This document shows positions 3,968-32,000 of a DNA stretch of 32,000 nucleotides, one piece after another (within the stretch, counting starts at the first letter, position 1; every line of letters starts with the position of its first letter). Below the pieces are notes generated by a model. That model did not search any database. It was not told the origin of the DNA and worked only from the letters and a program-made list of their open reading frames with translations. The translations under genes were made by a program, and so were the position numbers. The DNA comes from Sinorhizobium meliloti (GTDB lineage Bacteria > Pseudomonadota > Alphaproteobacteria > Rhizobiales > Rhizobiaceae): the NCBI RefSeq assembly GCF_017876815.1, contig NZ_JAGIOS010000002.1, positions 990,001-1,022,000 of the forward strand, written 5' to 3'.

Positions 3968-4160
3968 ATTCTGCCGATCTCCGGGACAGTGACTGCTGTA
4001 GAGCGAGTATTCACCCCAAAACGGCAATACGCAATGATGGCAAAGCTGTACTGGCCGGCCATCCTGCGGGAGCCTCGCCAATATACGGTCACGGCTCGAG
4101 AATAGGCTGCGTATCCGCGCGATCCTGCGTTTGGAAACGCCTCAACGAAGGAGAATGACC

Positions 4161-4835: not shown

Positions 4836-4861
4836 TCTTCCTCGTCGGGTGGCATGACGCT

Positions 4862-4886
4862 GCAGAAGGCCCGTGCGGCCTTCTGC
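4862..4886 (+). terminator. Hairpin downstream of the DJ-1 gene
   Basis: gcagaaggcc (4862-4871) / ggccttctgc (4877-4886), 10-bp stem with 5-nt loop, followed by aattcgat. Confidence 0.55.
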
Positions 4887-5007
4887 AATTCGATACAGAT
4901 CCCCTTGTTACGAGACACAATCGGGATACCTCGCTCTGGTCCCATGCTCCGCGTGTCAAGCGCGACCGCCGCCGCAAGAGGCGCAGGTCCAATGCAGAGG
5001 GACGAAA

Positions 5008-6756
5008 ATGATCCTTTTCACAATAGCTTATCTCGCAGGTGCGCTGACAATCCTCAGCCCCTGCATCCTCCCGGTCTTGCCTTTCGTGTTTTCGCGGGCC
5101 GGCCAGCCCTTCGCCAGGAGCGTTCTTCCGATGCTCATCGGCATGGTTCTCACATTCGCGGGCGTGGCCACACTCGCCGCGCTTGGTGGTGACTGGGCGG
5201 TACAGGCGAATGTGGCCGGGCGGTATGCGGCGATCGCAGTGCTGGCCGGTTTCGGCGTGACCCTGCTTTCGACGCGGGCCGCGGCCCTGTTCACTCGTCC
5301 GGCCGTCGCACTCGGCAGCCGGCTCTCACAAAAAATGGCCGGTCAGCCGCCGAGCGTCGGAGCGTCGCTCCTTCTCGGTGTTGCAACCGGACTTCTTTGG
5401 GCGCCCTGCGCGGGCCCAATTCTGGGCCTGGTGCTGACCGGCGCCGCCCTGCACGGTGCCAATGTCGAGACCACGCTTCTGCTGGCGGCTTATGCTGCCG
5501 GTGCGGCGACTTCGCTGGCCTTGGCCGTTCTTGCCGGAGGGAGAGTGTTTGCGGCGATGAAGCGCTCACTCGGCCTTGGCGAGCGGCTCCGGCAGGGCCT
5601 CGGCATTGCCGTGCTTGCAGGCGTTGCCGCAATCGCGCTCGGGCTCGATACGGGGCAGCTTGCGCGCCTCTCCTATGCAAGCACCGCGGCCATCGAGCAG
5701 TCGCTCCTCGACGGTGTGCGGGGCGACTCCGTCGAGGACAGGGCGTCAACTGCCGTCGGCGGCGAGGGACCGGCCTACCGCAGCGACTTGCCGGTGGAAG
5801 GCATGTTCCCGCCGCTGGACGGCGCCGTCGAGTGGGTCAACTCGAAGCCTTTGAGCGTGGAACAGCTGCGCGGCAAGGTCGTTCTCGTCGATTTCTGGAC
5901 CTACTCCTGCATCAACTGCATCCGTACGATCCCCTATGTCCGCGCCTGGGCCGAGAAGTATCGGGACCAGGGGCTGGTGGTGATCGGCGTGCATGCGCCT
6001 GAATTCGCCTTCGAAAAGCGCATCGCCAACGTCAGGAGCGCAGTGACGGATTTCGATATCCGCTATCCCGTTGCGATCGACAACGATTTCGCGATCTGGC
6101 GCGCCTTCGGCAACAGCTACTGGCCCGCGCACTATTTCATCGATGCAGAAGGACGGATCAGACACCATCACTTCGGCGAGGGCGATTATGCGCGGTCGGA
6201 GCGCGTCATACAGGAGCTGCTGGCGGAAGCGGCGGGGAGCCGCCGCGGCGACAATGGTTTCGTGCAGCCGGATGCGACGGGTGCCGAAGCCGCGCCCGAT
6301 CTCGCCAATCTCCAGTCCGGCGAGGATTATGTCGGCTACATGCGTGCTTCGAACTTCGTGTCGCCGGAGCGTGTCGCAGCCGATGCGGCGCACGAGTATA
6401 CCGCCGGCGAGCCTCGGCTCAATCAATGGAGCCTCGCCGGCAACTGGACGGTTGGTGCAGAGCAGGCGACACTCAATCGCGCCGGGGGCGCAATCACCTA
6501 CAGGTTCAGCGCGCGCGATCTGCACCTTGTCCTCGGCCCTGGGGAAAACGGCAGGAGGGTGCGCTTTCAGGTGAAGGTCGACGGTGCTGCACCGGGCCCG
6601 GATCACGGTTCGGACATTGATTCCGACGGCTATGGAACGGTGGGAGAGACGCGCCTCTATCAGCTCGTACGGCAGTCGGGGGAGGTGCGGGAACGAACGT
6701 TCGAGATCCGCTTTCTCGAACCCGGCGTCGAAGCATTCGTTTTTACGTTCGGATGA
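5008..6756 (+). CDS. DipZ-like fusion: CcdA/DsbD-type thiol-disulfide transporter, TlpA-like thioredoxin domain and a C-terminal beta-rich domain (582 aa)
   Basis: Membrane domain with the two conserved Cys (LSPCILP, WAPCAGP). Redoxin domain with CxxC (FWTYSCINCIRT). Start re-set to ATG 5008 (MILFTIAYLAG..) behind SD GAGGGA. Confidence 0.85.
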   Translation: MILFTIAYLAGALTILSPCILPVLPFVFSRAGQPFARSVLPMLIGMVLTFAGVATLAALGGDWAVQANVAGRYAAIAVLAGFGVTLLSTRAAALFTRPAVALGSRLSQKMAGQPPSVGASLLLGVATGLLWAPCAGPILGLVLTGAALHGANVETTLLLAAYAAGAATSLALAVLAGGRVFAAMKRSLGLGERLRQGLGIAVLAGVAAIALGLDTGQLARLSYASTAAIEQSLLDGVRGDSVEDRASTAVGGEGPAYRSDLPVEGMFPPLDGAVEWVNSKPLSVEQLRGKVVLVDFWTYSCINCIRTIPYVRAWAEKYRDQGLVVIGVHAPEFAFEKRIANVRSAVTDFDIRYPVAIDNDFAIWRAFGNSYWPAHYFIDAEGRIRHHHFGEGDYARSERVIQELLAEAAGSRRGDNGFVQPDATGAEAAPDLANLQSGEDYVGYMRASNFVSPERVAADAAHEYTAGEPRLNQWSLAGNWTVGAEQATLNRAGGAITYRFSARDLHLVLGPGENGRRVRFQVKVDGAAPGPDHGSDIDSDGYGTVGETRLYQLVRQSGEVRERTFEIRFLEPGVEAFVFTFG

Positions 6757-15044: not shown

Positions 15045-15714
15045 AGAGGTCATCCTTTCCCGCATTGGCCGAGGCCCGTCCTCGATGCCAGTGCGGCTAT
15101 TTGAATGACTGCGTGTATTGACGATGTGTCGGCCGGGCGGGACTTTTGTAACGGCATGTGTCAGCGGCGAAGGCGCCAGCCGAGCAATTGCGGAGGAACG
15201 GCCTTCGCGCAGCGACGCCGACGATGGTCGCGCTATTCGCCGGCCCCGCCCGCATCAAATCCGATCGAGGCTGCGCCACGGCGCCTGGCGGTCCAGGATG
15301 GTCGATCCGGGGCACCAGATCGACGAGCGGTTCCATGGGCTCGCTTGCTGGCGCCACAGCGGACCGAACCACAGAAGCACGAGCGCCGTTCCCAGCGGGA
15401 GGGCCGGGATAGCGATGAACAATGCCGTTTGCATAAGCTTTGTCGGTCACGCGAGTGACCGCTCCTATCGGCCGTCGTGCGGCCTCTCGATTCTTACAAC
15501 CGGATGGCCCCAAGAAAGTTCCTTGCAGTAGGTCGCGATCAAGGAAAGGCTGCAGTCGCTCAGCGGCGACATCCCCCATATTAAGGCCCGAGACCTCGCA
15601 TCTGCGGCAATGGGAAATACCATTGGCGAGGACGCCGAGCTGCAGAGCGGAGACCGGGTGCCGCAATTCGTTAAATGAGGGTTGGTGGGCGAGCCGGTAT
15701 TTCTCGTGCTGTGC

Positions 15715-16547: not shown

Positions 16548-17234
16548 TCAGGCGATGTTGCGGTCGGTGTTGCCGGCATTCCAGCCGGGTGATCCTCCCG
16601 ATGGGCGGATGCGAAGGTTGTTCTGGACATGCTTCACGCCGGAGACGGCTTCGGCGCAGTCCTCGGCGCGGCGTTTGGCCCATTTGGAATCGACCAAACC
16701 GCTCAGCTGGACTTCGCCATTGGTGACCGAGACCGCGATATCGGAGGCGTCGAGCATTCCTTCGTCGCTGAGGCGATCGCTCACGTCTTCCTGGATGCGG
16801 GCGTCCGAACGGGTGTAGCCCTTGGGACCTTTGCCGCGATGCTGATCCAGCTCGCGTCTGCGCTCGGCGTCCTCGTCGCCCAACCAGGACGCGACTTCGT
16901 CGCTGGCGCGTTCGAGAAAGCCGCGCTCCCCGTAGCCCCTGCCGCGATCGGGATACCCCTCGCCATAGTCATCGTCGCGGTAATAGCCTCCACCGCCGAA
17001 GTAACCTGGGCCGTATGCGCGTTCCCGTTCCCAGCTGTCATCGTGCCCGCGATATGTGCCGGAACGGCCCGGCTCGGCGCCGGCAAAATACTCCGGGCTC
17101 CCGTAATCCGTAAGCCGCGGACCGGCAGTCAGGGCGCGGCGCCTCTCGTCCTCGTAGGATCTGCCGCGCCGGCGCCGGTCCGACTCGGGATAGCTCTCGT
17201 AGACGTCGCGGCTCCAGCTCCTGTTCCTGGCCAT
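16548..17234 (-). CDS. BON-domain stress protein with a disordered R/D/E/G/Y-rich N-terminal half (SWFGD-like motif SWLGD), 228 aa
   Basis: C-terminal BON-like segment (IQEDVSDRLSDEGMLDASDIAVSVTNGEVQLSGLVDSKWAKRRAEDCAEAVSGVKHVQNNLRI). Low-complexity GYG/YYRDDDY region. SD AGGAGG before ATG 17234. Confidence 0.8.
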   Translation of the reverse strand: MARNRSWSRDVYESYPESDRRRRGRSYEDERRRALTAGPRLTDYGSPEYFAGAEPGRSGTYRGHDDSWERERAYGPGYFGGGGYYRDDDYGEGYPDRGRGYGERGFLERASDEVASWLGDEDAERRRELDQHRGKGPKGYTRSDARIQEDVSDRLSDEGMLDASDIAVSVTNGEVQLSGLVDSKWAKRRAEDCAEAVSGVKHVQNNLRIRPSGGSPGWNAGNTDRNIA

Positions 17235-17270: not shown

Positions 17271-17295
17271 AACCCGCGAGCGGTCACTCGGTTCC
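17271..17295 (-). promoter_or_regulatory. EcfG/RpoE2-type promoter for the BON gene
   Basis: Minus strand reads GGAAC-cgagtgaccgctcgcg-GGTT (N16), ending 37 nt before ATG 17234. Confidence 0.6.
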
Positions 17296-17350: not shown

Positions 17351-17375
17351 GGAACCTTCGGCGGCCGACACGGTT
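17351..17375 (+). promoter_or_regulatory. EcfG/RpoE2-type promoter for the small membrane ORF
   Basis: GGAAC-cttcggcggccgacac-GGTT (N16), ending 25 nt before ATG 17400. Divergent from the BON promoter. Confidence 0.55.
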
Positions 17376-17655: not shown

Positions 17656-17680
17656 GGAACAAGGTTCTAAATGGCTCGTT
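17656..17680 (+). promoter_or_regulatory. EcfG/RpoE2-type promoter for the three-gene membrane-protein operon
   Basis: GGAAC-aaggttctaaatggct-CGTT (N16; full consensus), ending 50 nt before ATG 17730. Confidence 0.7.
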
Positions 17681-19901: not shown

Positions 19902-19922
19902 ATCCTCGATTATTCAATAGGC

Positions 19923-20927
19923 ATGACAACGATTGCCAAAGTCGCCAAACGAGCGGGCGTATCTCTGACCACGGTCTCGCACGTGTTGAATCATGCAGAC
20001 CGCGTTTCGGCGGAAATGCGTAGAAGGGTGGAAGTGGCGATAGCGGAGCTCGGTTACGTACCGAACCCCCAGGCACAAAGCCTGCGCACGGGGCGGACCA
20101 ACCTCGTGGCGATGCTGATCCCGGATATCCGCAACCCCTTCTATCCGGAACTCGTAAAAGCGGCCCAGTCGGATCTCCAGGCGATGGGGCTGGATCTACT
20201 GATCTTCAATACCGACGTTCCCGGCGGTCACTCGCAGGAACATAGCCGGCAATATCTGAGGCACATACGAAACCGCCGGATCGACGGATTGATCGTCGGC
20301 GATTTTGCCCTGCATGACATGCACGACGCATTGATCGGCATAGACGTCCCCACCGTCTTCATCGGCGACCTGCCGAATGCAGCCGTCGACAGCGTCAAGA
20401 TCGACGATTTCGGCGGCGGTTATCAGATGGGCGCCTACCTTGCGAAGAGAGGCCACAAGCGCATAGCCCATGTCACGGGCCCGTCTTTCTTTGCCGAGGC
20501 CATGGCAAGAGCGGCGGGTTTCGAACAGGGCCTGCGCGATCACGGCGTGGAGCCACTCGCCGAACTGCGGCGCGAAGGCACCTATCTTAGTCCGTCCGGC
20601 CGGGAAGCCGTGGAATGGCTGCTGGCGACCAGTGGCGATCACCTACCTTCAGTCGTCTTTTTCGGCAATTTTCTCATGGCGGCGGGGGCGATTGCCGAAT
20701 TCCATGACCGCGGCGTCCGTATTCCCGACGACGTTTCGATTGCCGTTTTCGGCGACCAGCCCCAGCTCGAATATGTGCGGCCGCGGATCGCGCGTGTCGG
20801 CAACACCCCTTCGCTGCTCGCGCACCGAGCAACCGCCATGCTGCTCGAACGGTTGTCGGGCGAGTATTCAGGGTCGCCCCGCTCGGAGGTGATCCCCTGC
20901 ATCCTTCACGCCTTCGATACGGCGTAG
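19923..20927 (+). CDS. LacI-family transcriptional regulator (334 aa)
   Basis: HTH MTTIAKVAKRAGVSLTTVSHVLNH, then a periplasmic-binding-protein-like sugar-binding domain. Start re-set to ATG 19923; the upstream part of the tracked ORF merely translates the palindrome. Confidence 0.9.
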   Translation: MTTIAKVAKRAGVSLTTVSHVLNHADRVSAEMRRRVEVAIAELGYVPNPQAQSLRTGRTNLVAMLIPDIRNPFYPELVKAAQSDLQAMGLDLLIFNTDVPGGHSQEHSRQYLRHIRNRRIDGLIVGDFALHDMHDALIGIDVPTVFIGDLPNAAVDSVKIDDFGGGYQMGAYLAKRGHKRIAHVTGPSFFAEAMARAAGFEQGLRDHGVEPLAELRREGTYLSPSGREAVEWLLATSGDHLPSVVFFGNFLMAAGAIAEFHDRGVRIPDDVSIAVFGDQPQLEYVRPRIARVGNTPSLLAHRATAMLLERLSGEYSGSPRSEVIPCILHAFDTA

Positions 20928-20987
20928 GGCGAAGCCGCCCTCCGGAGAGGAGCCGGGGGGTGTTTACCAGCAAAACGGGAGGAATTA

Positions 20988-22343
20988 ATGAGTGACAGAG
21001 AGAAGGTTTTTCCGACACTGACCCGACGCGGCCTGCTGAAGGGCGGTGCGGCGGTCGCCGGCGGTATCGTCGGCCTCGGCGGATTTCCCTACATCAACCG
21101 CTTCGCCGTACGCGCCCAGGAAGCACCGCTGAAATTCTGGCAGTTCTACGCACCCGGCGGGCCGGTGGCGAGCCAGGTCGCATGGTTCGAGAAGACGGTC
21201 GCCGACTGGAACGACAGCCACCCGCAGAAGATCGAACTCGAGTTCATTCCGAACTCCGAATATATCAGTGGTCCGAAACTGGCGACTGCCTTCGCCTCCG
21301 GCGAGGGACCTGACATATTCATCATCTCGCCGGGCGACTTCCTGCGCTACTATAATGGCGGCGTCCTCAAGGATCTGACCCCCTTCATCGATGATAAGGC
21401 CAAGGCGGACTTTCCCGAAAGCGTCATCGCAAACCGCATGGTGGACGGCAAGATCTTCGGCATCCCGATGGAAGTCGAGCCGATGGCGATGTACTATTCG
21501 GTCAAGGCTTTCGAGGAGGCCGGCCTCAACGAGAACGATGTTCCCAAGACATGGGAGGCGCTGCTTGAGGTCGCAAAGAAGCTCACGACTCCCGAGCGCT
21601 TCGGAGTGATGTTCGAGACCCAGCCGGGATATTACCAGAACTTCACGTGGTATCCGTTCCTTTGGCAGGGCGGCGGCGAATTCCAGACGGCCGACGGCAA
21701 GAGCAGCTTCGATTCGCCGGCAACGGTGCAAGCGCTCAAATTCTGGCAGGATGCGATCAACAGTGGGGTGGCGCCCCGCCAGATCATGGGTGCGGGCGGG
21801 CACGATACCATTGCCAACCTCGCATCCGGCTATGTCGCAATGCAGAATGTCGGCATCTGGGGCATTTCACAGCTTCAGAGCAACGCCAAGGATTTCCAGT
21901 ATGGCGTCTTCCGGCTGCCCACGCCGCCGAACGGCAAATATGTGACCGTCGGCGGCGGATGGGCATTCGTCGCCAATGCAAATGGCCACAACTCCGACGC
22001 GGCGGGCGAGTTCTGCGCCTGGGCCCTCGCCTCCATGGATCAGGGCTCTGTCAACCGGGTCGCCAACTGGTGCACCAAGGGCAAATCAGACATGCCGCCG
22101 CGCAACAGCGCGCTGAAGAGTGGCGGCGGGGCCTTCTCGACGGGTATGATCGGCAAATTCGCCGAGGAGATTCATCCCGGGACGCGGGCCGAGCCGCGCG
22201 TTCCGCCGGAGGTGTACAAGATCATCTCCGATGCGATCCAGCAGACGCAGCTAGGCGGCGCCGATCCGCAAGCGACGGCGACGGCCGCCTCTCAGCAGCT
22301 CGACGCGTTTCTCGCGAGCTATCAAGGCGCGCCGATCCTTTGA
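20988..22343 (+). CDS. Sugar ABC transporter substrate-binding protein (451 aa)
   Basis: Tat-like signal TRRGLLKGGAAVAGGIVGLGG. Family-1 SBP features (WNDSHPQKIELEFIP.., DIFIISPGDFLRYY). SD GGGAGG before ATG 20988. Confidence 0.9.
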   Translation: MSDREKVFPTLTRRGLLKGGAAVAGGIVGLGGFPYINRFAVRAQEAPLKFWQFYAPGGPVASQVAWFEKTVADWNDSHPQKIELEFIPNSEYISGPKLATAFASGEGPDIFIISPGDFLRYYNGGVLKDLTPFIDDKAKADFPESVIANRMVDGKIFGIPMEVEPMAMYYSVKAFEEAGLNENDVPKTWEALLEVAKKLTTPERFGVMFETQPGYYQNFTWYPFLWQGGGEFQTADGKSSFDSPATVQALKFWQDAINSGVAPRQIMGAGGHDTIANLASGYVAMQNVGIWGISQLQSNAKDFQYGVFRLPTPPNGKYVTVGGGWAFVANANGHNSDAAGEFCAWALASMDQGSVNRVANWCTKGKSDMPPRNSALKSGGGAFSTGMIGKFAEEIHPGTRAEPRVPPEVYKIISDAIQQTQLGGADPQATATAASQQLDAFLASYQGAPIL

Positions 22344-22400
22344 CGGCCACACCGGCGGCCGCACCGGATGCGGCCGCCTCAGTAAGCTGGACATGATGCC

Positions 22401-23344
22401 ATGACAACGATTGCCCAATCGGCCGCGCGGCGCAGGCACGCCGGCCGAACCCGCCTTTCCGCCAAACATCGCGAATGGATCGCGGGCTATCTCTTCGTGC
22501 TGCCGGATGCGCTGGGGCTGTTCATTTTTCTCGGCGTCCCGATGGCGCTATCCCTGGTGCTCAGCGTCTTCGAGGTCAACGGTTTCGGCGGTTACTCCTT
22601 CGTCGGCGCCAGGAATTACCTGCGCATGTGGAACGACCCGCTGTTCTGGAAGGGAGCGAGGGTCCCGCGCTCTACGCCGCCATGCTGGTCCCGCTGCTCT
22701 ACGTATGCGGGCTGGGTCTTGCCCTTCTCGTGCAGCGTACCGATCGCTTCAACGCGATCATGCGCTCGATGTTCTTTGCGCCGCACATGGTCAGCCTCGT
22801 CGTCGTCGCGCTCGTCTGGCAATTCATGGTCGTCGACAAGATCGGCGTTGTCAGCAGGCTGACCGCCGCTCTCGACATCGGCGGCATCTCCCTCCTCGGC
22901 GATCCCAACTTCGCGCTGATCACCATCGTCCTAGTCAGCGTCTGGTTCCTGATGGGATTCTACATGCTGATCTTCCTGGGCGGTCTGCAGGACATTCCCC
23001 GTCAATATTACGAGGCGGCGATGATCGACGGGGCGGGTGCCATCGCCCGCTTCTGGTTCATCACGCTGCCGCTTCTCAAGCCCACGAGCTTTTTCGTGAT
23101 CATGGTGTCCATGGTCGCGGCCGTCGCAGGCGCGCAGGCCTTCGACATCATCTACGTCATGACCAAGGGCGGGCCTGCGAACGCCACGTCGGTGCTGATC
23201 GTCTATATCTATCAGCAGGCTTTCGGTTTCGGCGCCTTCGGCTATGCGGCAGCCATGGCCTCCATCCTGGTCGTGGCGCTCATGATCGTGACGGCTGTTT
23301 TCTTTGCTCTGACGCGGGGAGGACGGTTCCATCATGAGCAGTAA
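22401..23344 (+). pseudogene. Sugar ABC transporter permease (MalF/UgpA-like) interrupted by a -1 frameshift near 22660-22667
   Basis: The N-terminal ~85 aa are in the frame of 22401 (..AGYLFVLPDALGLFIFLGVP..ARNYLRMWNDPLFWKG). The remainder is in the frame of 22475 (ALYAAMLVPLLYVCGLGLALLV..EAAMIDGAGAIARFWFITLPLLKP). The two frames join at ggtCCCgcg. Confidence 0.75.
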
Positions 23345-24182
23345 GCGTCCCCAGCCATTTTTCTCCCGATCGCAGGTCACGCTGGTCCGTGGCCTCTGGA
23401 TGGTGGTGACGGCGATCCTCGCCTTCATGACGCTCTTTCCGCTCCTCTGGATGGTATCGATCGCCTTCAAGCCGGCCGCCGAGTCGTTCTCTTCGAACCT
23501 TATCCCGCAGGCACCGACGCTCGACAACTTCATCTATGTACTGACCGGCGTTCCGTTCATCCGATACATGGTCAACAGCTTCCTCGTGTCCGCCACGGTC
23601 ACGGTCGTGGCGCTGTTCTTCCACACCATGGCCGGTTATGCGCTGGCGCGGCTGAGATTTCCCGGCCGAGAGGTGATGTTTCTCTCAATCTTCTCGACGT
23701 TCCTGGTCTCGCTGCCGGTGATCATCGTGCCGCTCTTCGTCATCGTCAAAGCCATGGGCATGCTCAACTCCTACGCAGGATTGATCATCCCGGCGATCTT
23801 CAATGCCTTCGGCATCTTCCTTCTCAGGCAGTATTACCTGTCGCTGCCCAAGGAGATCGAGGAAGCCGCCCGCATCGACGGCGCGGGTTACTGGCGGATC
23901 TACTGGAGCGTCATCCTCCCGCTCAGCCGCCCAATCATGTCGGCACTGGCGATCCTGTTTTTCCTGGCCAACTGGAACTCCTTCCTGTGGCCGCTCACCA
24001 TCACCTCGGACCCCGATCTCTGGGTCGTCCAACTCGGGATTGCGAATTTCAAGAGCCAGTATTCGGCGTCCTGGAACTACATGATGGCCGCTTCCACGAT
24101 CGTCGCCATTCCGACCCTCATCCTCTTCGTGATCTTCCAGAGGCAGATCATGGATTCCCTCAAGACCAGCGGGCTCAAGTGA
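23334..24182 (+). CDS. Sugar ABC transporter permease (MalG/UgpE-like), 282 aa
   Basis: EAA-loop region EEAARIDGAGYWRIYWSVILPLSRP. Six hydrophobic segments. Overlaps the upstream permease by 11 nt. Confidence 0.9.
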   Translation: MSSKRPQPFFSRSQVTLVRGLWMVVTAILAFMTLFPLLWMVSIAFKPAAESFSSNLIPQAPTLDNFIYVLTGVPFIRYMVNSFLVSATVTVVALFFHTMAGYALARLRFPGREVMFLSIFSTFLVSLPVIIVPLFVIVKAMGMLNSYAGLIIPAIFNAFGIFLLRQYYLSLPKEIEEAARIDGAGYWRIYWSVILPLSRPIMSALAILFFLANWNSFLWPLTITSDPDLWVVQLGIANFKSQYSASWNYMMAASTIVAIPTLILFVIFQRQIMDSLKTSGLK

Positions 24183-24212
24183 GCTGCGAGCGATTACACA
24201 GGAGCAATTCGA

Positions 24213-25409
24213 ATGACCAATGCCGGCCTCTCGCCCCTTCGCGGTCTCGCGAAGCTGCGCAAAGCGAAAACGCGCCGCTTCTCCAGCCATGACCGCACCG
24301 GCGGCAACGACGACAGGCTGCACATCGAACCCGGCAAGACGGTGGTGATCGGTGAATACGAAGGTGCCGGCATCGTCACCCATATCTGGGCGACGCTCGC
24401 ATGCGAGAGCGAGGACTTCCTGCGCAAAATCGTGCTCAGGGCCTACTGGGACGGTGAGACGGAGCCGAGCATCGAAGCGCCTGTCGGCGACTTCTTCGGC
24501 ATGGGCCATGCCCGCACCGCCAATTATACAAGCCTGCCGATGCAGGCCAGCCCGGAGGATGGCAAGGCCTTCAACTGCTACTTCCCCATGCCCTTCGGCT
24601 CGCAAATGAAGTTCACCGTCACCAACGAGGCCGAACACGACGTCCTCTTCTACTACTATATCGACCTCGAGCTTCACGATGTCCTCGAGGAGGACATGGG
24701 CCGTTTCCACGCACATTACCGTCAGGCACGGCCGGCGGGTATGAGCGAAGCCGGGCTGACCAACGAACAGTTCCTTTTCGGCGGCGAGAACGTCGATGGT
24801 CGAGAGAATTACACGATCCTTGAGGCCGAAGGGCGCGGCCATTACGTCGGCGTACTCTACAGCGTATACTCGCGGCGCCGTTCCGAGGTCTGGGATTGGT
24901 ATGGCGAAGGCGACGACATGATCTTCATCGATGGCGAGCAGGGACTGTCGGTACCGGATACCGTGCGCAAGCCCGATCCGCGCATCGGTCCGAAGGCGGC
25001 GTTGATCGAACCGCGGCCCGAGTCTGAACCAGGTGCCAACGACGCCTGGCCACCGACCCTGCACGGCACGGGCACGGAAGACTATTTCAACACCGCCTGG
25101 TGTCCGACCCAGGATTATAGCGCGCCCTACCACGGCATCATCGCGGCCGGCGGCCCCAACTGGACCGAACCGGTAACGCTCTACCGCTGGCACATCGAAG
25201 ATCCCGCCATCTTCCACAAGGCCATTCGGGTGACGATCGAACGGGGCCATGCCAACCGCCGCGGCGACGATATCTCCTCCGTAGCCTTCTGGTACCAGGC
25301 AGAGCCGCATAAGCCCTTCGGCAAGTTCCCCGATGTTGCGGACCGGGTACCGACTTATCGCCGCCCGTTCCACAACATGGAAGCGGCAATGAAAAAGGCG
25401 AGAGGCTGA
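24213..25409 (+). CDS. DUF2961 / glycoside hydrolase family 172-like protein (398 aa)
   Basis: [62 protein letters not shown] ... [13 protein letters not shown] are the blocks I associate with DUF2961. SD AGGAG before ATG 24213. Confidence 0.8.
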
Positions 25410-25410
25410 G

Positions 25411-26502
25411 ATGGCCAGCGTTGAAATAAGGAATGTGGTCAAGCGCTTTGGTGCGCTGGAAGTCGTCCATGGTGTCTCGGCAGAGATCGCCGACGGCGAA
25501 TTCGTCGCGATGGTCGGCCCGTCGGGCTGCGGCAAGTCCACCCTTCTGCGGATGATCGCGGGCCTTGAGGAAATCTCCGACGGAGCGGTCGTGATCGGAG
25601 GAGATATCGTCAATGAGGTCGCTCCGAAAGACCGCAATATTTCGATGGTCTTCCAGAACTATGCGCTCTACCCGCACATGACCGTTGCCGAGAACATGGC
25701 CTTCGCGCTTCGCTTGGCCCGCCTCCCTAAGGACGAGCAGAAGAGGAAGGTGGGCGAAGCGGCTACCATGCTCGGCCTCGACGGCCTGCTCGACCGGTAT
25801 CCGGGGCAGCTCTCCGGCGGTCAGCGCCAGCGCGTCGCCATGGGGCGGGCCATCGTCCGCCGTCCTGAAGTCTTCCTGTTCGACGAACCCCTGTCAAATC
25901 TCGACGCAAAGCTCCGAGTGCAGATGCGTGCCGAGATCAAAGGTCTGCACCAGCGCCTTCGCACCACCAGCATCTACGTGACGCATGACCAGATCGAAGC
26001 CATGACGATGGCCGACCGCATTGTCGTGATGCGCGACGGCAACGTCGAGCAGATCGGGACGCCGCTGGAGATTTTCGACTATCCTCGCAATCTCTTCGTC
26101 GCGAGCTTCATCGGCAGTCCCTCGATGAACTTCATCCAAGGCGAGGTCGTTGACGGTACGTTCCGAGCGCCCGGCGGCATCACCATTCCTGCTCCCCATC
26201 TGGCCCCCAAGGGGTCGGCCGTCGCGGGAATAAGGCCGAACAAGCTGCAGATCGGCACTACCGGCCCCTTCGCCAAGGTGCTGATCGCGGAACCGACGGG
26301 CGACGAAACACACCTTTTGGTGGAGCTTGGCGGAGCGCAACTGGCCATGTTGCTTCGCGAACGCACCAGCCTCGCACCCGGTGACGAGATCGGCCTCGCC
26401 TTTGCCTCCGCTGATGTTCACTTCTTCGACGGTCAGACCACCCTGCGGCTTGGAGCGCTTCCCGGAGAAGTGCGAAACGGTTTTCCGTCCGCAAGTGCGT
26501 AG
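25411..26502 (+). CDS. Sugar ABC transporter ATP-binding protein (MalK/UgpC-type), 363 aa
   Basis: Walker [10 protein letters not shown], signature LSGGQRQRV, Walker [11 protein letters not shown]-loop YVTHDQ, C-terminal TOBE-like regulatory domain. The last ~15 codons lie in a repeat copy. Confidence 0.95.
26456..26502. repeat. Second copy of the 47-nt interspersed repeat module (without the large palindrome)
   Basis: cgcttcccggagaagtgcgaaacggttttccgtccgcaagtgcgtag matches 11057-11103 at 38 of 47 positions, in the same orientation. Confidence 0.7.
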
Positions 26503-26570: not shown

Positions 26571-26595
26571 GGAACAAATACCGTGAAAGCCGGTT
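26571..26595 (+). promoter_or_regulatory. EcfG/RpoE2-type promoter for two small-protein genes
   Basis: GGAAC-aaataccgtgaaagcc-GGTT (N16), ending 27 nt before ATG 26622. Confidence 0.6.
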
Positions 26596-26621: not shown

Positions 26622-26966
26622 ATGTCCAAGCCGGCAAGCAATTCTGCGCAGGTGCGCGGCGACATCCAGCATGGAAGGACGGGTGACAAGAGGCGCGGCT
26701 TCGATCCCGCGGCGGCGCCGCTCGAGACTGACGACGAAGCAGGCGGTACGCCTCCCGGCAGTGAAGCGGTCCGAACCGCCAGGGCCGGGCAGGCGGAGGG
26801 GAGGCCGGCCGATACCTCTACCGAGTACAACGACGCGATGCGGCCGCTTGCAGCGGCGGAGACCGCCGGACCGAACAGGCAACGGCTGGGGCTGAGCCTG
26901 GCCATTGTAGCCATGGCCATCGTGATAGGCGGCTTGATCTACGCCGGCGGGCTTCTCTCGCCGTGA
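26622..26966 (+). CDS. Small stress-regulon protein, disordered with a C-terminal TM anchor (114 aa)
   Basis: SD AAGGAG 26611-26616. N-terminus ..GDIQHGRTGDKRRGFDPAAAPLETDDEAGGTPP... C-terminal TM LGLSLAIVAMAIVIGGLIYAGGLL. Confidence 0.65.
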   Translation: MSKPASNSAQVRGDIQHGRTGDKRRGFDPAAAPLETDDEAGGTPPGSEAVRTARAGQAEGRPADTSTEYNDAMRPLAAAETAGPNRQRLGLSLAIVAMAIVIGGLIYAGGLLSP

Positions 26967-27005: not shown

Positions 27006-27197
27006 ATGCCTGACCGTCGACGCCCATCGAAAGATCCTCTATCGGAACTGGCCGCTCGCGAGGAAGCCATGTATTTGCGGCGCTCGTCGATGCGCTTTCT
27101 CGAATGTGCGATTCATCTCTGCGTGACGCATATGACGCTTCAGGAGGTGGCCGACCTGCTCGAGAAGGAAGCTGCGCAGCTTCGCCGCTTCGGATGA
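27006..27197 (+). CDS. Small hypothetical protein (63 aa)
   Basis: SD AAGGAG 26993-26998 upstream of ATG 27006. Lies 39 nt downstream of the previous gene. No recognisable family. Confidence 0.45.
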   Translation: MPDRRRPSKDPLSELAAREEAMYLRRSSMRFLECAIHLCVTHMTLQEVADLLEKEAAQLRRFG

Positions 27198-27292: not shown

Positions 27293-28087
27293 TCAATCCA
27301 GTCGCGCCTTGTTCCCGACATCTGCCGAACCTCCGAGGATCCTCAGGGTGGGCTCGTCCAGATACGGGCGCTCGCCGCGCCGCAGGAGATAGACTTCCCG
27401 CTCGGGATTGGCTTCGATGACGAAGCCTGCGCTTCGCAACATCGCCTCGACGCCGGCGCGGTTGGGAATGAACCAGTTGGTGGGGTCATCCGCGAAGCGG
27501 TGTTCGACGAAGAACAGCTTCGGATGGTCGGGCCGGTCGAAGATCTCCCACTCCCGGAAATCGTAATCACCCTTGAGGCTTGCAACGGAATCCGACCCGC
27601 GCTGCATGCACTGGAAGAGCATCTGGTCGCCGACGACGTGCTCGTAGAGAAGGTCGAGTGCCAGCAGCGGATGGCGTAGGTGATAGAGAACGCCCATGAA
27701 GATGACTAGGTCGAATCTCTCGCGAAGGCGTGCCGCGTCATAGACCGACATCAGCCTGTATTCGATGTCGACCCCCGCCTGCTCCGCGGCAAACTTCGCC
27801 TGCCGCAGATAGTGCGGGTCCGAGTCGATGCCGAGTACGCGTCCGGCATTGCGGCGTTTCATCTCCTGTGCGTAGAACCCCGCATTGCAGCCGATGTCGA
27901 GGACGCTCCTTCCTTCGAGGTCCTCCGGCACGACATGCCTGAAGGCCTTCCACTTCACCGCGGGATAGTCGCCGAGAAAGTGACCGGGCGCCGTCTCGAT
28001 GCCCCCGATCCGCATGTTGTGGAACCAGGGACCGAGCGCCGCAATCTCTTGCGCGATGACCGTTCGGTCTTTCGTCTGTTGAACCAT
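27293..28087 (-). CDS. Class I SAM-dependent methyltransferase, CmoB/DUF1698-like (264 aa from ATG 28087; alternative GTG start at 28093)
   Basis: GPWFHNMRIGG.. N-terminal block, SAM motif I VLDIGCNAGFY, VIFMGVLYHLRHPL, C-terminal WFIPNRAGVEAMLRSAGF; the layout parallels CmoB. The ATG lies 2 nt after the upstream stop (TGATCATG). Confidence 0.8.
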   Translation of the reverse strand: MVQQTKDRTVIAQEIAALGPWFHNMRIGGIETAPGHFLGDYPAVKWKAFRHVVPEDLEGRSVLDIGCNAGFYAQEMKRRNAGRVLGIDSDPHYLRQAKFAAEQAGVDIEYRLMSVYDAARLRERFDLVIFMGVLYHLRHPLLALDLLYEHVVGDQMLFQCMQRGSDSVASLKGDYDFREWEIFDRPDHPKLFFVEHRFADDPTNWFIPNRAGVEAMLRSAGFVIEANPEREVYLLRRGERPYLDEPTLRILGGSADVGNKARLD

Positions 28088-28089
28088 GA

Positions 28090-29130
28090 TCACAGATCCT
28101 GACTGACGATGGAAAGTTGCGGCTGGCGCCGGGTGCGGCCGGACCGGCGTTCAGCGCGGCTTCCGCCAAGTGCGCTCTGGAACCAGGTGATCGTATGCGT
28201 CAGCCCGTCCTCCAGAGGAACTTTCGGCTCCCAACCGAGAAGCTTCCTGGCGCGCGCGATATCGGGACGGCGACGCTGCGGATCGTCCGCCGGCAGCGGC
28301 TCATGGACGATCGTCGAGGCCGTCTCGATCCTGGAGAGGACCAGCTCCGCCAGTTCAATGACGGTGAATTCTCCGGGATTGCCGAGGTTCACCGGTACCG
28401 CAGGGTTCTCCTTACGGTTCATCAGCCGGATCAGTCCGTCCACGAGATCGGAGACGTAGCAGAAGGAGCGCGTCTGCTCGCCACTGCCGTAAACAGTGAG
28501 CGGCTCGTTCTTCAGCGCCTGGACGATGAAGTTCGAAACGATCCGTCCGTCATTGGGGCGCATATGCGGACCGTAGGTGTTGAAGATGCGAGCGACCCGC
28601 GTGTCGACGCTTCCCGCCCTCAGACTGTCGAAGCACAGGGCTTCGGCCGCGCGTTTGCCCTCGTCGTAGCAGGCCCGCGGCCCGGTGCAATTGACGTGGC
28701 CCCAGTAGTTCTCCTGCTGCGGATGCTCCTCGGGATCGCCGTAGATCTCGCTTGTGGAGGCCTGCAGAAACGTGGCCCCGTGCCTTTCGGCGAGCCGCAG
28801 GAGATTTCCCGTCCCGGTCACGCTGGTCATCATCGTGTGGATGGGATCGGCCTGGTAGGACGGCGGCGAGGCCGGGCAGGCCAGATTGTAGATCTGGTCG
28901 ACCGGTTCATCGATGTCGATTTCATCGCAGACGTCCTGTTCCACCATGGCGAAATAGGGGTTCGCCTGCAGGCCGATGAGATTGGCAGGGGAGCCGGTGA
29001 GATAGCTGTCGAGGCAGATCACCCGGTTGCCGGCGCCTAGAAGTGCTGTACAAAGGTGCGATCCGACAAAGCCGGCCCCGCCGGCAACCAGGATGATCTT
29101 TCCTCGGCTTGCTTTGTTTCTTTTAGCCAT
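28090..29130 (-). CDS. UDP-glucuronate decarboxylase (UDP-xylose synthase, UXS)-like extended SDR, 346 aa
   Basis: Rossmann motif VAGGAGFVGSHL, ASTSEIYGDP, catalytic YDEGKRAAE (YxxxK), RIFNTYGP, GEQTRSFCYVSDLV. Start re-set to ATG 29130 behind SD AAGGAG. Confidence 0.85.
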   Translation of the reverse strand: MAKRNKASRGKIILVAGGAGFVGSHLCTALLGAGNRVICLDSYLTGSPANLIGLQANPYFAMVEQDVCDEIDIDEPVDQIYNLACPASPPSYQADPIHTMMTSVTGTGNLLRLAERHGATFLQASTSEIYGDPEEHPQQENYWGHVNCTGPRACYDEGKRAAEALCFDSLRAGSVDTRVARIFNTYGPHMRPNDGRIVSNFIVQALKNEPLTVYGSGEQTRSFCYVSDLVDGLIRLMNRKENPAVPVNLGNPGEFTVIELAELVLSRIETASTIVHEPLPADDPQRRRPDIARARKLLGWEPKVPLEDGLTHTITWFQSALGGSRAERRSGRTRRQPQLSIVSQDL

Positions 29131-29149
29131 CGGCCGTTCTCCTTTCGGG

Positions 29150-30268
29150 TTAAACCGGAAGCCGCCGCTCGGAACGCCTGGTGGCGAGACCGGTCCTGGC
29201 GGCGACGCTTTCGATTGCCTCGACAAAGGTCCGTGCGCGCGCCGCGGAACTGTGCGCGGCGGCGACGCGTCGATAGGCGCAATCGGCAAGTGCTTTGCGT
29301 TGTTCTTCGCCGAGCCTCGTCAATGCCGTGACGACATCGGCGCTGTTCTGCGCGATGATCACGGCCTCGCCGGCCGGGAAGAAACTTTCGATCCCCTCCC
29401 ACCAGTCGCTGACGAGCGGCGTGCGGCACGCGGCCGCCTCGAAGAGGCGAACGCTTGGGGACCAGCCGGCTGCCACCATGTCGGCTCGCGTGACGTTCAG
29501 GGTGAATCGCTGGCGGCTGTAGAATTCAGCATGTTTGCCGGGCGGCAGATGTTCGATGCGCTGGACGTTTGCGGGCCAGTCGATGTCATCAGGATAGCTC
29601 GGCCCGGCCACGACGAAGCGCATGTCCGGCAAGCGCCGCGCCGGCTCGATCAACAGGCGTTCGAGCGCGGGCTGCCTGTCGGGGCTGAAGGTGCCGAGAT
29701 AGCCGAGGTCCCACTCCGTGGCCGCACCGGTATCGCGATAGGCGTCGAGGTCGACGGCGCAATAGAGGGGTACCGGCCGCCGCGCCGCGAACTCGTCCCG
29801 CAGCCGGTCAAGCGTTCTGCCGCCGGAGAAGGAAAAATAAATGTCGAACGCCGCAACCTGTCTTCGCGCGAGAAACTCCTCGTCGCCGCGCTCGAGCTTG
29901 GCGAGCGTCACGGGCGTGTCGATGTCGTAGAAGCACAGGCGTTTCGGTCCGAGATCCGCGACCACGTCGATGACCTCCACCCCATCAGGCACATAGGAGC
30001 CGATGACGACGGCATCCGCGCCGAAAAGCCTGTGCGCATGCTTGGAGACGAGTTCGTACGGGTCCGTGTAGAACACGAGGTCGCAGAAATCCGGCGCGGC
30101 CAGATCGCGGTTGCTCGCATACCAGGGCACGTCCCGTTCCAGGAACGTCACCTTGTGCCCGGCAGCGTCGAGCGCGCGAAGCAAAGCACGATAGGTCGTC
30201 GCATGACCGTTGCCCCACGAGGAGGACAGCGAGAGACCGAGAATGACGATGTCGAGCGGTCGCTTCAT
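29150..30268 (-). CDS. CgeB-like glycosyltransferase (GT-B fold, Glyco_trans_1_2-type), paralog 3, 372 aa
   Basis: MKRPLDIVILGLSLSSSWGNGHATTYRALLRAL.. and C-terminal ..SPSVRLFEAAACRTPLVSDWWEGIESFF, paralogous to the two upstream genes. ATG 30268 is in an ATGA overlap with the upstream stop. The tracked 571-aa ORF is over-extended. Confidence 0.8.
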   Translation of the reverse strand: MKRPLDIVILGLSLSSSWGNGHATTYRALLRALDAAGHKVTFLERDVPWYASNRDLAAPDFCDLVFYTDPYELVSKHAHRLFGADAVVIGSYVPDGVEVIDVVADLGPKRLCFYDIDTPVTLAKLERGDEEFLARRQVAAFDIYFSFSGGRTLDRLRDEFAARRPVPLYCAVDLDAYRDTGAATEWDLGYLGTFSPDRQPALERLLIEPARRLPDMRFVVAGPSYPDDIDWPANVQRIEHLPPGKHAEFYSRQRFTLNVTRADMVAAGWSPSVRLFEAAACRTPLVSDWWEGIESFFPAGEAVIIAQNSADVVTALTRLGEEQRKALADCAYRRVAAAHSSAARARTFVEAIESVAARTGLATRRSERRLPV

Positions 30269-31350
30269 TCGGCAGCCTCCATGCGGTGCGCCCGCCGCAA
30301 GACGCGATCCACCTCCTCGGCACGATGCGCATAGGTATGCTCGGCGAGAACGCGGCGGAGCGCCCGCTCGCCGATCTCCCTGGCGCCGGCAGCCGTCAGC
30401 TTCTGCATCAGTTCGGCGACGTCCCGGCCGTCTCTGGCGACCAGCACTTCTTCTCCGGGCTTCAGGAAGAGCTCGATGCCCTCCCAGTAGTCGGTGATCA
30501 GGCAGGCGCCGGCGCCCGCGGCCTCGAAGACGCGGGTTGCCGGCGAGAAGCCGTTTTCGGCCATGCTGGCGCGTGAAATATTCAGGACGGCATTCGGCGT
30601 CGTGTTGAAGGCATTGTGGTCGGCGGTCGGGACGTGTCCGATATAGGCGACATTCGGGGACAGAGACTTGTCGTGCCACCCGGATCCGCCGAGCAGGAAA
30701 CGCCGCTGCCAGAGCTTTTGCGCCGGCTCGAGGAAGAAGGCCTCCACGCGCTCCTCCCGATCTGGCAGGCGGTTGCCGAGGAAGGCGAGATCGGCGACAA
30801 AGCGCGGATCCGGCGGCACCGGATGGTGCGTCTCGGGATCGACGGCATTGTAGATCGGAACGCATTCGCGGGCACCGAGCACGCGATAGGCGTCGACCAC
30901 GGGATCGCCGCCGCCATAGGTCAGCACAAGATCCAGGGAGGAAAGCGCGCGGCGAAGCGGGTGGTCGGGTGCGGCCTTGAGCTCGGCCAGAGTGGCTGGT
31001 GCATCGACATCCCAGAAGATTTTCAGCGCCGCCGAGTCTGCCGCGGCCATCACCTCGGCAAGCAGCAGCTCGTCCTCGAAGCCGACGCCGCTCGCCTTGA
31101 CGACGATCTCCGCCTTGGCTGCTTCCTGCGCCACTCGCTTCAACGCCTCGACGGTCCCGTCATAGACGACGACCCTGCACCAGGAGGGCGGGTCGATATC
31201 GCGGTGCTTCTGCCGATCGTAGACATCAGGCTCGTAGAAGGTGATCTGATAACCCCGTTCGGCAAGCGCACGGAGCAGGCCGCGATAATAGGTGGCCGCG
31301 CCGTTCCAGTAGGCCGAAACGAGACTCGATCCGTAAAATGCCAGTCTCAT
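30265..31350 (-). CDS. CgeB-like glycosyltransferase, paralog 2, 361 aa
   Basis: MRLAFYGSSLVSAYWNGAATYYRGLLRAL.., ..SPATRVFEAAGAGACLITDYWEGIELFL. SD GGAGGAGG. ATGA overlap with the upstream gene at 31347-31350. Confidence 0.8.
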   Translation of the reverse strand: MRLAFYGSSLVSAYWNGAATYYRGLLRALAERGYQITFYEPDVYDRQKHRDIDPPSWCRVVVYDGTVEALKRVAQEAAKAEIVVKASGVGFEDELLLAEVMAAADSAALKIFWDVDAPATLAELKAAPDHPLRRALSSLDLVLTYGGGDPVVDAYRVLGARECVPIYNAVDPETHHPVPPDPRFVADLAFLGNRLPDREERVEAFFLEPAQKLWQRRFLLGGSGWHDKSLSPNVAYIGHVPTADHNAFNTTPNAVLNISRASMAENGFSPATRVFEAAGAGACLITDYWEGIELFLKPGEEVLVARDGRDVAELMQKLTAAGAREIGERALRRVLAEHTYAHRAEEVDRVLRRAHRMEAAE

Positions 31351-32000
31351 ACCTCGACCTCCTCCGAAATGATCTGTCGCGCGCCGGAGCGCGGCCTGTA
31401 GGAGGCCACGATGGCGAGCAGCTCGTCGACGCGATGGCTGCATGTGTGGCGCGCCCGGACCGTCTCCAATCCGCAGGCGGTCATCTCCGCGGCGAAGTCC
31501 GGTTCGGCGAGCAGCTGGCGCAGAAGGCGCGTCATCTCCTTGCCGTCCTTGGCAAGGCAAAAATCCTTGCCCGGCCGGAAAAGCCCTTCAGCATCGGTCC
31601 ATGGCGCCGAAATCAGCGGAATGCCGCAGGCAAGCGCCTCGAAGACGCGGATTGTCGGTATTCCCGGCAGAGCCTCGACATAGGGCCGGCGCGGAATGTG
31701 CACGGTGACCCGATGCTCGGCGAAAGCCCGCGGAACGGCGGCATTGGCGAGCCAGCCGCCATAGTCGATTTTTGCGGAGCGCAAGGCCCTGAGCGCGGCC
31801 TTGGGATATCGCACGCCGCGGACGGTCGTCCTGAGCTTCAGCTTTTTCGCCGGTTCGACCAGAAAGGACATGATCTCGCTGCTGCGCTCGTCGTCGCCCC
31901 AATTGCCGATCCAGATGAGCTCGCCCCGCTTCTCCACTTCCGGCATCGGGTGGAACAGCGAGGTATCCGCAGCCTCGTGCCAGGTATGGACATGCCTTCC
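31347..32000 (-). CDS. CgeB-like glycosyltransferase, paralog 1, C-terminal part (5' end beyond the window edge)
   Basis: The frame stays open to nt 32000 (..HVHTWHEAADTSLFHPMPEVEKRGELIWIGNWGDDERS..). C-terminal block IRVFEALACGIPLISAPWTDAEGLF is paralogous to the two downstream genes. Confidence 0.75.
   Translation of the reverse strand, partial: GRHVHTWHEAADTSLFHPMPEVEKRGELIWIGNWGDDERSSEIMSFLVEPAKKLKLRTTVRGVRYPKAALRALRSAKIDYGGWLANAAVPRAFAEHRVTVHIPRRPYVEALPGIPTIRVFEALACGIPLISAPWTDAEGLFRPGKDFCLAKDGKEMTRLLRQLLAEPDFAAEMTACGLETVRARHTCSHRVDELLAIVASYRPRSGARQIISEEVEV

Follow-up and report, generated by a model that had tools for sequence, protein, structure and literature searches.

Mycobacteria make polymethylated polysaccharides, the methylglucose lipopolysaccharides (MGLP) and methylmannose polysaccharides (MMP), and these systems, together with the pathway to their glucosylglycerate primer (GpgS and GpgP), invite comparison with a group of genes at the end of a 32,000-nt stretch of DNA from Sinorhizobium meliloti (contig NZ_JAGIOS010000002.1, positions 990,001 to 1,022,000; hereafter the window). 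The genes, at 27293-32000 of the window, encode three CgeB-like glycosyltransferases (GTa, GTb and GTc), a UXS-family UDP-glucuronate decarboxylase and a methyltransferase dependent on S-adenosylmethionine (SAM), and belong to a larger cluster. In both cases there are apparently soluble, cytoplasmic GT-B transferases and a SAM-dependent O-methyltransferase, with no export genes, and in both a primer would be obtained from a phosphorylated acceptor through a glycosyltransferase and a phosphatase of the histidine-phosphatase family, although the match of the S. meliloti phosphatase SMb20250 to glucosyl-3-phosphoglycerate phosphatase (GpgP) is weak (E 1e-7). No orthology between the two was shown. 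The transferases of S. meliloti are of the CgeB type (PF13524), the presumed primer is an inositol phosphate whereas that of mycobacteria is 3-phosphoglycerate, and acyltransferases are missing, while the S. meliloti cluster has a pyruvyl transferase and additional enzymes for sugar tailoring.

The first steps of mycothiol and bacillithiol synthesis resemble the cluster in the presence of an inositol-3-phosphate synthase (Ino1), a GT4 enzyme and a phosphatase in one cluster, and BshA and MshA were among the best structural matches of the GTb model. Unlike those pathways, the cluster has no deacetylase, ligase or acetyltransferase, and it has four further glycosyltransferases and a methyltransferase. 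The crust glycan of Bacillus subtilis spores is built without a lipid-carrier export system and is linked to the dormant state, and the product of the cluster would resemble it in having no such export system and in being linked to stress resistance. CgeB and the transferases of the cluster have the domain PF13524 in common; the present host, however, is a non-sporulating Gram-negative bacterium without crust proteins and with three to four tandem paralogous copies of the glycosyltransferase. On the same replicon of S. meliloti, the uxs1-uxe-aps locus (SMb20458 onward) has a UXS paralogue that supplies UDP-pentose to glycosyltransferases and directs the synthesis of an arabinose-containing polysaccharide under the control of cyclic di-GMP and CuxR. 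The genes studied here are instead under RpoE2, with a different set of glycosyltransferases, and the TIGR04290 methyltransferase and Ino1 are both missing from the uxs1-uxe-aps locus. Finally, the orthosomycin clusters (everninomicin, avilamycin) have in common with the S. meliloti cluster an EvdMO1-like O-methyltransferase, a UXS-type decarboxylase and GT4-like glycosyltransferases, but they are antibiotic clusters of actinomycetes that also include oxygenases, a polyketide part and genes for resistance, whereas the S. meliloti cluster is widely conserved and stress-regulated.

The gene annotations, the RpoE2 dependence and promoter, and NCBI's function-unknown methyltransferase and radical-SAM equivalogs were already known. 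No paper was found on the function of the genes SMb20238-SMb20254 or naming their product, and the regulon papers list them in supplements only (PMC3616915, PMC6180224). In main texts, SMb20231 was the only locus tag of the SMb2023x, SMb2024x and SMb2025x series to be found, and the genes go unmentioned in papers on the general stress response of Bradyrhizobium and R. etli. Nothing was found in the literature on TIGR04290 or TIGR04295, and nothing relevant that combined CgeB, inositol-phosphate synthase and methyltransferase. New here are the exporter-less cluster of about 17 genes, its cross-phylum conservation and modular structure, a glycosyltransferase-methyltransferase fusion, a GT4-like fold and conserved EcfG promoters. 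We regard the cluster as an uncharacterised form of a known process, glycan or glycoside biosynthesis, and not as a new kind of system.

Conservation and general-stress control of the cluster

The stretch 27293-32000 was 100% identical to many S. meliloti pSymB megaplasmid records and 99.3% identical to strain 1021 (NC_003078.1, positions 242403-247110), and hundreds of S. meliloti contigs encode its five proteins. On pSymB the genes correspond to SMb20238-SMb20242, the locus tags having been fixed via microarray tables that pair products with tags (PMC6180224 supplement). A six-frame listing of open reading frames (ORFs) and direct translation gave five co-directional minus-strand ORFs. Their predicted junctions were all recovered, with TGAtcATG at 28092-28085, a 19-nt gap at 29149-29131 between the TAA stop (29152-29150) and the ATG at 29130, and ATGA overlaps at 30268-30265 and 31350-31347. 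The original prediction had treated the five genes as a tightly coupled cassette; the coupling held, but the five make up no more than the 3' part of an operon of eight genes, SMb20245 to SMb20238, within a cluster of about 17 genes, SMb20238 to SMb20254. The 5' part of the operon, beyond nt 32000, was read from identical pSymB records, in which GTa is visible at full length, the genes upstream of the window end are co-directional with overlapping or nearly abutting junctions, and the operon start, expected outside the window, was found at SMb20245. A scan around the operon end found no sigma-70 promoter or intrinsic terminator.

None of the five proteins gave a membrane-helix candidate in a 19-residue Kyte-Doolittle scan, in agreement with the original prediction. 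The maxima were 1.29-1.44 for the methyltransferase and the three glycosyltransferases, and 1.75 for the decarboxylase, where the peak is the Rossmann GxGxxG strand. No transmembrane segment was predicted in any cluster protein. The absence of export genes, first noted for the visible part, extends to the whole cluster, as the identical pSymB record has, in SMb20238-SMb20254 or its flanks, no annotated gene for Wzx/Wzy, an ABC polysaccharide exporter, a priming transferase or a chain-length regulator, and a standard Wzx/Wzy-dependent or ABC-dependent polysaccharide locus beyond nt 32000 was thus rejected. The flanks consist of hydroxyproline catabolism genes on one side and a LacI-controlled ABC sugar-uptake operon on the other, the latter encoding the only ABC transporter in the stretch matching the window.

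The methyltransferase family is large, with more than 8000 clusters at 90% identity (E <= 1e-20) and about 200 clusters at 50% identity (E <= 1e-30). One genome per GTDB species was scanned with an alignment of 10 methyltransferase sequences, an alignment of 24 being too diverse for the scan, and at least 583 loci were obtained. The best 80 were searched, the queries being the proteins of the S. meliloti cluster and others encoded in gaps of related loci; full 10-kb flanks were available for 47 of the 80. In all 80 the methyltransferase shared 61% identity or more with that of S. meliloti, and the loci came from Alphaproteobacteria (Rhizobiales, Rhodobacterales, Acetobacteraceae), Acidobacteriota, Verrucomicrobiota, Bacteroidota, Actinomycetota, Myxococcota, Gemmatimonadota and one Comamonadaceae genome. 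The association of the methyltransferase with CgeB-like glycosyltransferases reaches across phyla and well beyond close relatives. Every locus with full flanks had a CgeB-like glycosyltransferase near the methyltransferase (47/47), and 36 had the complete trio of GTa, GTb and GTc, which was seen in Alphaproteobacteria, Acidobacteriota, Verrucomicrobiota, Bacteroidota and Actinomycetota. A phosphatase was near the methyltransferase in 29 of the 47, UXS in 25 and Ino1 in 21. No export or priming gene was among the genes recurring near the methyltransferase in the 80 loci, which span eight phyla.

The recurring genes were organized into modules. One contained two short-chain dehydrogenases/reductases (SDRs), optionally a B12-radical-SAM enzyme, a GT4 enzyme, GTa, GTb, GTc and optionally UXS, while another contained Ino1, a histidine phosphatase, a fourth CgeB-like glycosyltransferase (GTd), a nucleotidyltransferase, the methyltransferase and a glycoside-hydrolase (GH)-like protein. 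Further modules paired a pyruvyl transferase with an FrhB-like protein, a zinc-dependent alcohol dehydrogenase (Zn-ADH) with a GFO protein, and a GT9-like protein with a HAD phosphatase. True UXS orthologues were found near the methyltransferase only in Alphaproteobacteria (34/54 loci), the sole match elsewhere being a generic SDR of 27% identity. Because UXS orthologues near the methyltransferase are confined to these loci, pentose is not a conserved feature, and this element of the original prediction did not extend beyond the class. Ino1 within 10 kb of the methyltransferase was also restricted to Alphaproteobacteria (29/54), with none in the 16 acidobacterial loci, which instead carry a radical-SAM enzyme and a HAD phosphatase. 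The TIGR04295 radical-SAM gene occurred in 20 of the 80 loci, and the copy from one acidobacterial locus (L037) scored 590.8 bits on the TIGR04295 model (cut-off 400). The S. meliloti cluster is without this B12-radical-SAM enzyme, the nucleotidyltransferase and the fourth glycosyltransferase, all of which are present elsewhere.

The GH-like gene was linked to the methyltransferase in 58 of the 80 loci, in varying positions. In Rhizobium, Phyllobacterium and relatives (L011, L013, L015, L019-L022 and others) it separates the two SDR genes, in most other phyla it is directly 3' of the methyltransferase gene, and in S. meliloti it is beside the histidine phosphatase gene.

The consensus of RpoE2 promoters is GGAAC-N18-19-TT (PMC3738161). 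The intergenic region before SMb20245 contains GGAAC-N18-TT (GGAACACTCCCGCGAAAGAGAGGTTT) and a second GGAAC site, so that the GGAAC-type promoter anticipated upstream is present in the sequence; it had already been published (PMC3616915). Schlueter et al. (2013) mapped two transcription starts for SMb20245, one of them preceded by GGAACAC-N13-AGGTTT, the RpoE2 motif just described (PMC3616915 supplement), and the list of rpoE2-dependent genes includes SMb20242, SMb20243, SMb20245, SMb20246 and SMb20247 (PMC3616915). Upon overexpression of rpoE2, every gene from SMb20238 to SMb20248 was up, with log2 values of 0.78 to 2.56 (Lang et al., 2018; PMC6180224 supplement). The SMb20245-SMb20238 operon is transcribed from a promoter of RpoE2, the EcfG-type general stress sigma factor.

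A scan of the related loci for GGAAC-N15-17-GTT within 350 nt upstream of each gene, with a chance rate that we estimate at about 2% per interval scanned, revealed the motif before genes that come first in their modules, namely the first SDR (17/38), Ino1 (19/29) and Zn-ADH (12/19). Internal genes had it rarely, with 0/46 for the GT4 gene, 1/80 for the methyltransferase gene and 2/42 for GTd, and the motif-positive loci were all alphaproteobacterial, the class having EcfG. The enrichment at first genes over internal genes indicates, at the level of sequence motifs, that general-stress control of the cluster is conserved and not peculiar to S. meliloti. No statement on conserved EcfG promoters of the cluster was found in the literature.

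Across the whole window, nine GGAAC-N15-17-GTT sites were counted where 1.8 were expected, and none of 100 shuffles reached nine. Those between 15255 and 27197 lie at 15498-15522, 17003-17025, 17271-17295, 17351-17375, 17656-17680 and 26571-26595. Several GGAAC sites are directly 5' of small genes, namely SMb20236, ndiA, one encoding a BON domain and two hypotheticals, and by its motif content the window appears to be a general-stress "island". SMb20236 (26622-26966, plus strand) codes for a product of 114 aa that has a hydrophobic segment at its C-terminus. Between it and the methyltransferase gene there is a 63-aa ORF (27006-27197, plus strand), convergent with the operon end. The array probe for the intergenic region between SMb20236 and the methyltransferase gene gave a log2 of 2.57 on rpoE2 overexpression, above all operon genes (PMC6180224 supplement).

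Methyltransferase, glycosyltransferases and decarboxylase

The methyltransferase SMb20238 scored 377.7 bits on TIGR04290 (E 1.6e-113, profile positions 2-225 of 226, cut-off 300), which is an NCBIfam "hypothetical equivalog", that is, a family of unknown function. The profile searches thus placed the methyltransferase in a hypothetical equivalog only and the glycosyltransferases in no characterised pathway. On the CmoB models NF011650 and TIGR00452, SMb20238 scored 71.1 and 70.1 bits, below the cut-offs of 209 and 275, with an alignment limited to the Rossmann core. The carboxylate of carboxy-SAM is bound in CmoB by what we take to be Lys91, Tyr200 and Arg315 (E. coli numbering), and a residue-level alignment left two of these three ligands unmatched. 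The SMb20238 motif GVLYHLRHP corresponds to the GVLYHxRxP of CmoB and holds the Tyr200 equivalent; the PWRKGPF motif with Lys91 is replaced by PWFHN, and the alignment stops before the C-terminal region with Arg315, SMb20238 being about 60 residues shorter than CmoB. The YHxRxP motif also occurs in EvdMO1, a plain SAM-dependent sugar O-methyltransferase, to which SMb20238 aligned over nearly its full length in a search of PDB sequences (E 1e-10, residues 6-223). With the ligands unmatched and the motif present in EvdMO1, the "CmoB-like" label of the original prediction describes, as far as the alignments go, a resemblance at the level of the fold, and carboxy-SAM chemistry is without support and was rejected.

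More distant TIGR04290-like methyltransferases were found fused to TPR repeats at the N-terminus or to DUF4214 at the C-terminus (P0289, P0296, P0319, P0286, P0356 and P0399), which suggests that this catalytic domain also has other uses, dependent on protein interactions.

All three glycosyltransferases have the Glyco_trans_1_2 domain of CgeB and YkvP (PF13524), with 128.2 bits for GTc, 134.0 for GTb and 130.8 for GTa against a gathering score of 25, which bears out their identification as CgeB-like; none exceeded the cut-off of any NCBIfam model. Their paralogy, also part of the original prediction, was evident in blastp comparisons, with 35% identity between GTb and GTc (E ~1e-57 to 1e-59), 28% between GTa and GTb (E 1e-23) and 25% between GTa and GTc (E 1e-15 to 1e-17), and in an alignment in which the C-terminal block R.FEA...L.S..W...E..F is common to the three. 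The N-terminal block said to be shared as well is present in full-length GTa; for GTa it is not visible inside the window, because only the last 217 residues lie before nt 32000. Inspection of the alignment by eye for the EX7E motif showed the second Glu (R.FEA), with a residue other than Glu eight positions upstream.

A sequence search of GTb against the PDB gave no match, and a model and fold search were therefore used. The AlphaFold model of GTb, with a mean predicted local distance difference test (pLDDT) of 87 and a predicted template-modelling score (pTM) of 0.86, has two Rossmann domains in a GT-B fold. Its best structural matches were sucrose-phosphate synthase, PglA, BshA, GlgM, MshA, the tll1591 glucosyltransferase and PimA, all GT4 enzymes of the GT-B type, with TM scores of 0.68-0.74 and identities of 12-16%; AviGT4 was also among the matches. 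Most of the top matches have soluble acceptors, those of PglA and PimA being lipid-linked. GTb is accordingly modelled with a GT4-like GT-B fold. A 659-aa protein from elsewhere joins a GTc-type domain (56% to GTc) to a TIGR04290-type methyltransferase (45%), and this natural fusion is direct evidence that GTc and the methyltransferase act on the same substrate.

The decarboxylase SMb20239 matched human UXS1 with 367 bits (E 7e-109, residues 11-321), and the catalytic motifs of the family were aligned in it as STSEIYGD (STSE.YGD) and YDEGKR (YxxxK). It is labelled "rmlB" in the annotation of strain 1021 and "UDP-xylose synthase 2" (Uxs2) in UniProt. The score and the motifs uphold the UXS-like identity first assigned to it, and by sequence SMb20239 is a bona fide UXS-family protein.

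A putative stress-induced glycan pathway and its alternatives

We propose, with a probability of about 0.5, that the cluster is a cytoplasmic, stress-induced line leading to a methylated oligosaccharide or glycoside. Judged from their families, the GalE-like SDR SMb20245, the CDP-tyvelose-2-epimerase-like SDR SMb20244 and Uxs2 would provide the sugar donors, SMb20244 hinting at a CDP-hexose and Uxs2 at UDP-xylose. One GT4 enzyme and the three paralogous CgeB-type GT-B transferases would then add sugars one after another to what is probably a soluble cytoplasmic acceptor; for this step the fold, paralogy and strict synteny of the transferases are observed. In Alphaproteobacteria the acceptor would probably derive from inositol 3-phosphate and be dephosphorylated later by the histidine phosphatase, Ino1 and the phosphatase both being encoded in the cluster; the suggestion of an inositol-phosphate primer is modelled on the pairing of synthase and phosphatase in the mycothiol and glucosylglycerate pathways. 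The TIGR04290 methyltransferase would O-methylate the glycan with ordinary SAM, a role suggested by its resemblance to EvdMO1 and by the glycosyltransferase-methyltransferase fusion. The product, a methylated hetero-oligosaccharide or glycoside that in rhizobia probably contains xylose, would serve as a protectant, accumulating in stationary phase or when cells meet heat or salt stress.

The inositol-primed version of this soluble assembly line is a more tentative proposal than the line itself. Equally speculative is the wider suggestion that such clusters represent an unrecognised class of cytoplasmic O-methylated hetero-oligosaccharides, inositol-phosphate-primed and xylose-containing in Alphaproteobacteria, controlled by the general stress response and serving as desiccation or osmotic protectants, as a non-actinobacterial counterpart of the mycobacterial polymethylated polysaccharides made by CgeB-type transferases.

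Several points weigh against the cytoplasmic line. Of the original prediction, the soluble pathway without an exporter stood, while its placement inside the cytoplasm is drawn from the absent export genes; the lack of an exporter in cis is no proof of a cytoplasmic fate, and S. meliloti has many polysaccharide export systems elsewhere. For transporters in the non-rhizobial loci, the check covered the conserved genes and a few ORFs from gaps. Neither an observed product nor an assay of an enzyme of the operon was found in the literature. The cluster contains a polysaccharide pyruvyl transferase, and some versions a GT9-like protein, both typical of surface glycans. Inositol is not a universal primer, because Ino1 was near the methyltransferase in no acidobacterial locus, and the S. 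meliloti version may be a reduced form of the cluster.

To our knowledge, most of the alphaproteobacterial general stress regulon is without known function, and trehalose is the sole well-established protective sugar in rhizobia. The cluster is conserved, strongly constrained and stress-controlled, and identification of its product could reveal a new stress-protective carbohydrate, one relevant to how rhizobial inoculants survive on seed and in dry soil. It could also yield the first biochemical role for CgeB-type glycosyltransferases outside spore formers, and assign functions to TIGR04290 and TIGR04295, both "hypothetical equivalog" families. The system lends itself to direct tests, given the genetic tractability of S. 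meliloti and a known inducing sigma factor.

The strongest competitor, itself rather unlikely, is that the genes make a cell-surface polysaccharide or decorate lipopolysaccharide or exopolysaccharide, with priming, flipping and export supplied from other loci. The nucleoside-diphosphate-sugar epimerases and decarboxylase, the five glycosyltransferases, the pyruvyl transferase with its FrhB-like partner and the GT9-like protein of some versions would all suit such a role, and pSymB has many polysaccharide loci, with xylose reported in S. meliloti glycans. However, neither the annotated genes in and around the S. meliloti cluster nor the genes recurring in the 80 loci include a priming transferase, Wzx/Wzy, ABC exporter or chain-length regulator, and the cluster proteins have no transmembrane segment.

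Glycosylation of proteins in the cytoplasm, in the manner of CgeB on spore-crust proteins and with the methyltransferase capping the glycan, is improbable. In Bacillus, assembly of the crust glycan takes place in the cytoplasm of the mother cell, and for S. meliloti the PF13524 domain in all three glycosyltransferases, which sources name "spore maturation protein CgeB", and the absence of lipid-carrier machinery from the cluster would agree with such a process. But no conserved candidate acceptor protein is encoded nearby, the lone unknown SMb20248 recurring beside Ino1 in 10 of the 80 loci (including Sorangium and Bryobacteraceae), and Ino1, the phosphatases and the nucleotidyltransferase point to a small-molecule primer.

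No more probable is a natural product of the orthosomycin or aminocyclitol type, a specialised oligosaccharide or cyclitol that may be released and whose role would be ecological and not protective. It would draw on the EvdMO1-like O-methyltransferase, the UXS-type decarboxylase, the GT4-like glycosyltransferases with the AviGT4 fold match and, in many genomes, a B12-radical-SAM enzyme, Ino1 and inositol-dehydrogenase-like oxidoreductases, but an aminotransferase, a polyketide part, a resistance gene and an efflux gene are all absent from the cluster. The methyltransferase, more than 60% identical across phyla, and the conserved general-stress control are more in keeping with a housekeeping role under stress than with a niche metabolite.

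That the methyltransferase is a CmoB-type tRNA-modifying enzyme or a carboxy-SAM-dependent alkyltransferase, placing carboxymethyl and not methyl on the product, is highly improbable: its best Pfam match is Methyltransf_9/DUF1698 (the CmoB family), several sources label it "tRNA (mo5U34)-methyltransferase" and the Tyr200 motif is common to both, but the model scores, the shorter chain, the replaced Lys91 motif, the unaligned Arg315 region and the motif in EvdMO1 all argue against it, as do its neighbours, which are always glycosyltransferases and never tRNA genes.

Feature coordinates and neighbouring genes

The features of the operon and of the larger cluster are collected in Table 1. SMb20243, the GT4 gene, scored 43 bits on the MshA model (cut-off 462), over its C-terminal part only.

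Table 1. Features of the SMb20238-SMb20254 cluster; positions are those of the window unless another reference is given.
Feature	Position	Strand	Size	Description
SMb20238	27293..28087	-	264 aa	SAM-dependent methyltransferase, TIGR04290; last gene of operon
SMb20238, alternative GTG start	28093	-		
SMb20239	28090..29130	-	346 aa	UXS-family UDP-glucuronate decarboxylase
Intergenic gap	29131..29149	-	19 nt	AAGGAG ribosome-binding site of UXS gene, read from sequence
SMb20240 (GTc)	29150..30268	-	372 aa	CgeB-like glycosyltransferase; PF13524 128 bits
SMb20241 (GTb)	30265..31350	-	361 aa	CgeB-like glycosyltransferase; PF13524 134 bits
SMb20242 (GTa)	31347..32000	-	C-terminal 217 of 376 residues	CgeB-like glycosyltransferase, cut by window end; PF13524 131 bits
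SMb20243	beyond window			GT4
SMb20244	beyond window			SDR, E 7e-82 to CDP-tyvelose 2-epimerase; abuts SMb20243
SMb20245	beyond window			GalE-like SDR; first operon gene
SMb20246 / SMb20247	divergent side			Zn-dehydrogenase and Gfo/Idh/MocA oxidoreductases; weak best matches to inosose / inositol dehydrogenases
SMb20248	4025-5773 of locus L008		582 aa	No Pfam or NCBIfam match
SMb20249				Inositol-3-phosphate synthase (Ino1); 556 bits on mycothiol-type INO1 model, below 638 cut-off
SMb20250				Histidine phosphatase
Gene after SMb20250				Glycoside-hydrolase-like, annotated "beta-xylosidase"
Next two genes				FrhB-like protein and polysaccharide pyruvyl transferase

Some records have a 114-aa "hypothetical" ORF before SMb20245, which spans the divergent promoter region and is probably spurious.

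The LacI-regulated ABC sugar-uptake operon that flanks the cluster occupies 19922-26502 of the window (plus strand) and includes the gene of a GH172-family protein (24213-25409) in which no signal sequence is obvious; the operon may or may not be related to the neighbouring glycan cluster. At the other end of the window, approximately positions 1-1900 carry the pqqB-E genes for making pyrroloquinoline quinone; assorted regulators and a DipZ-like gene come next, and all of these are unrelated to the cassette.

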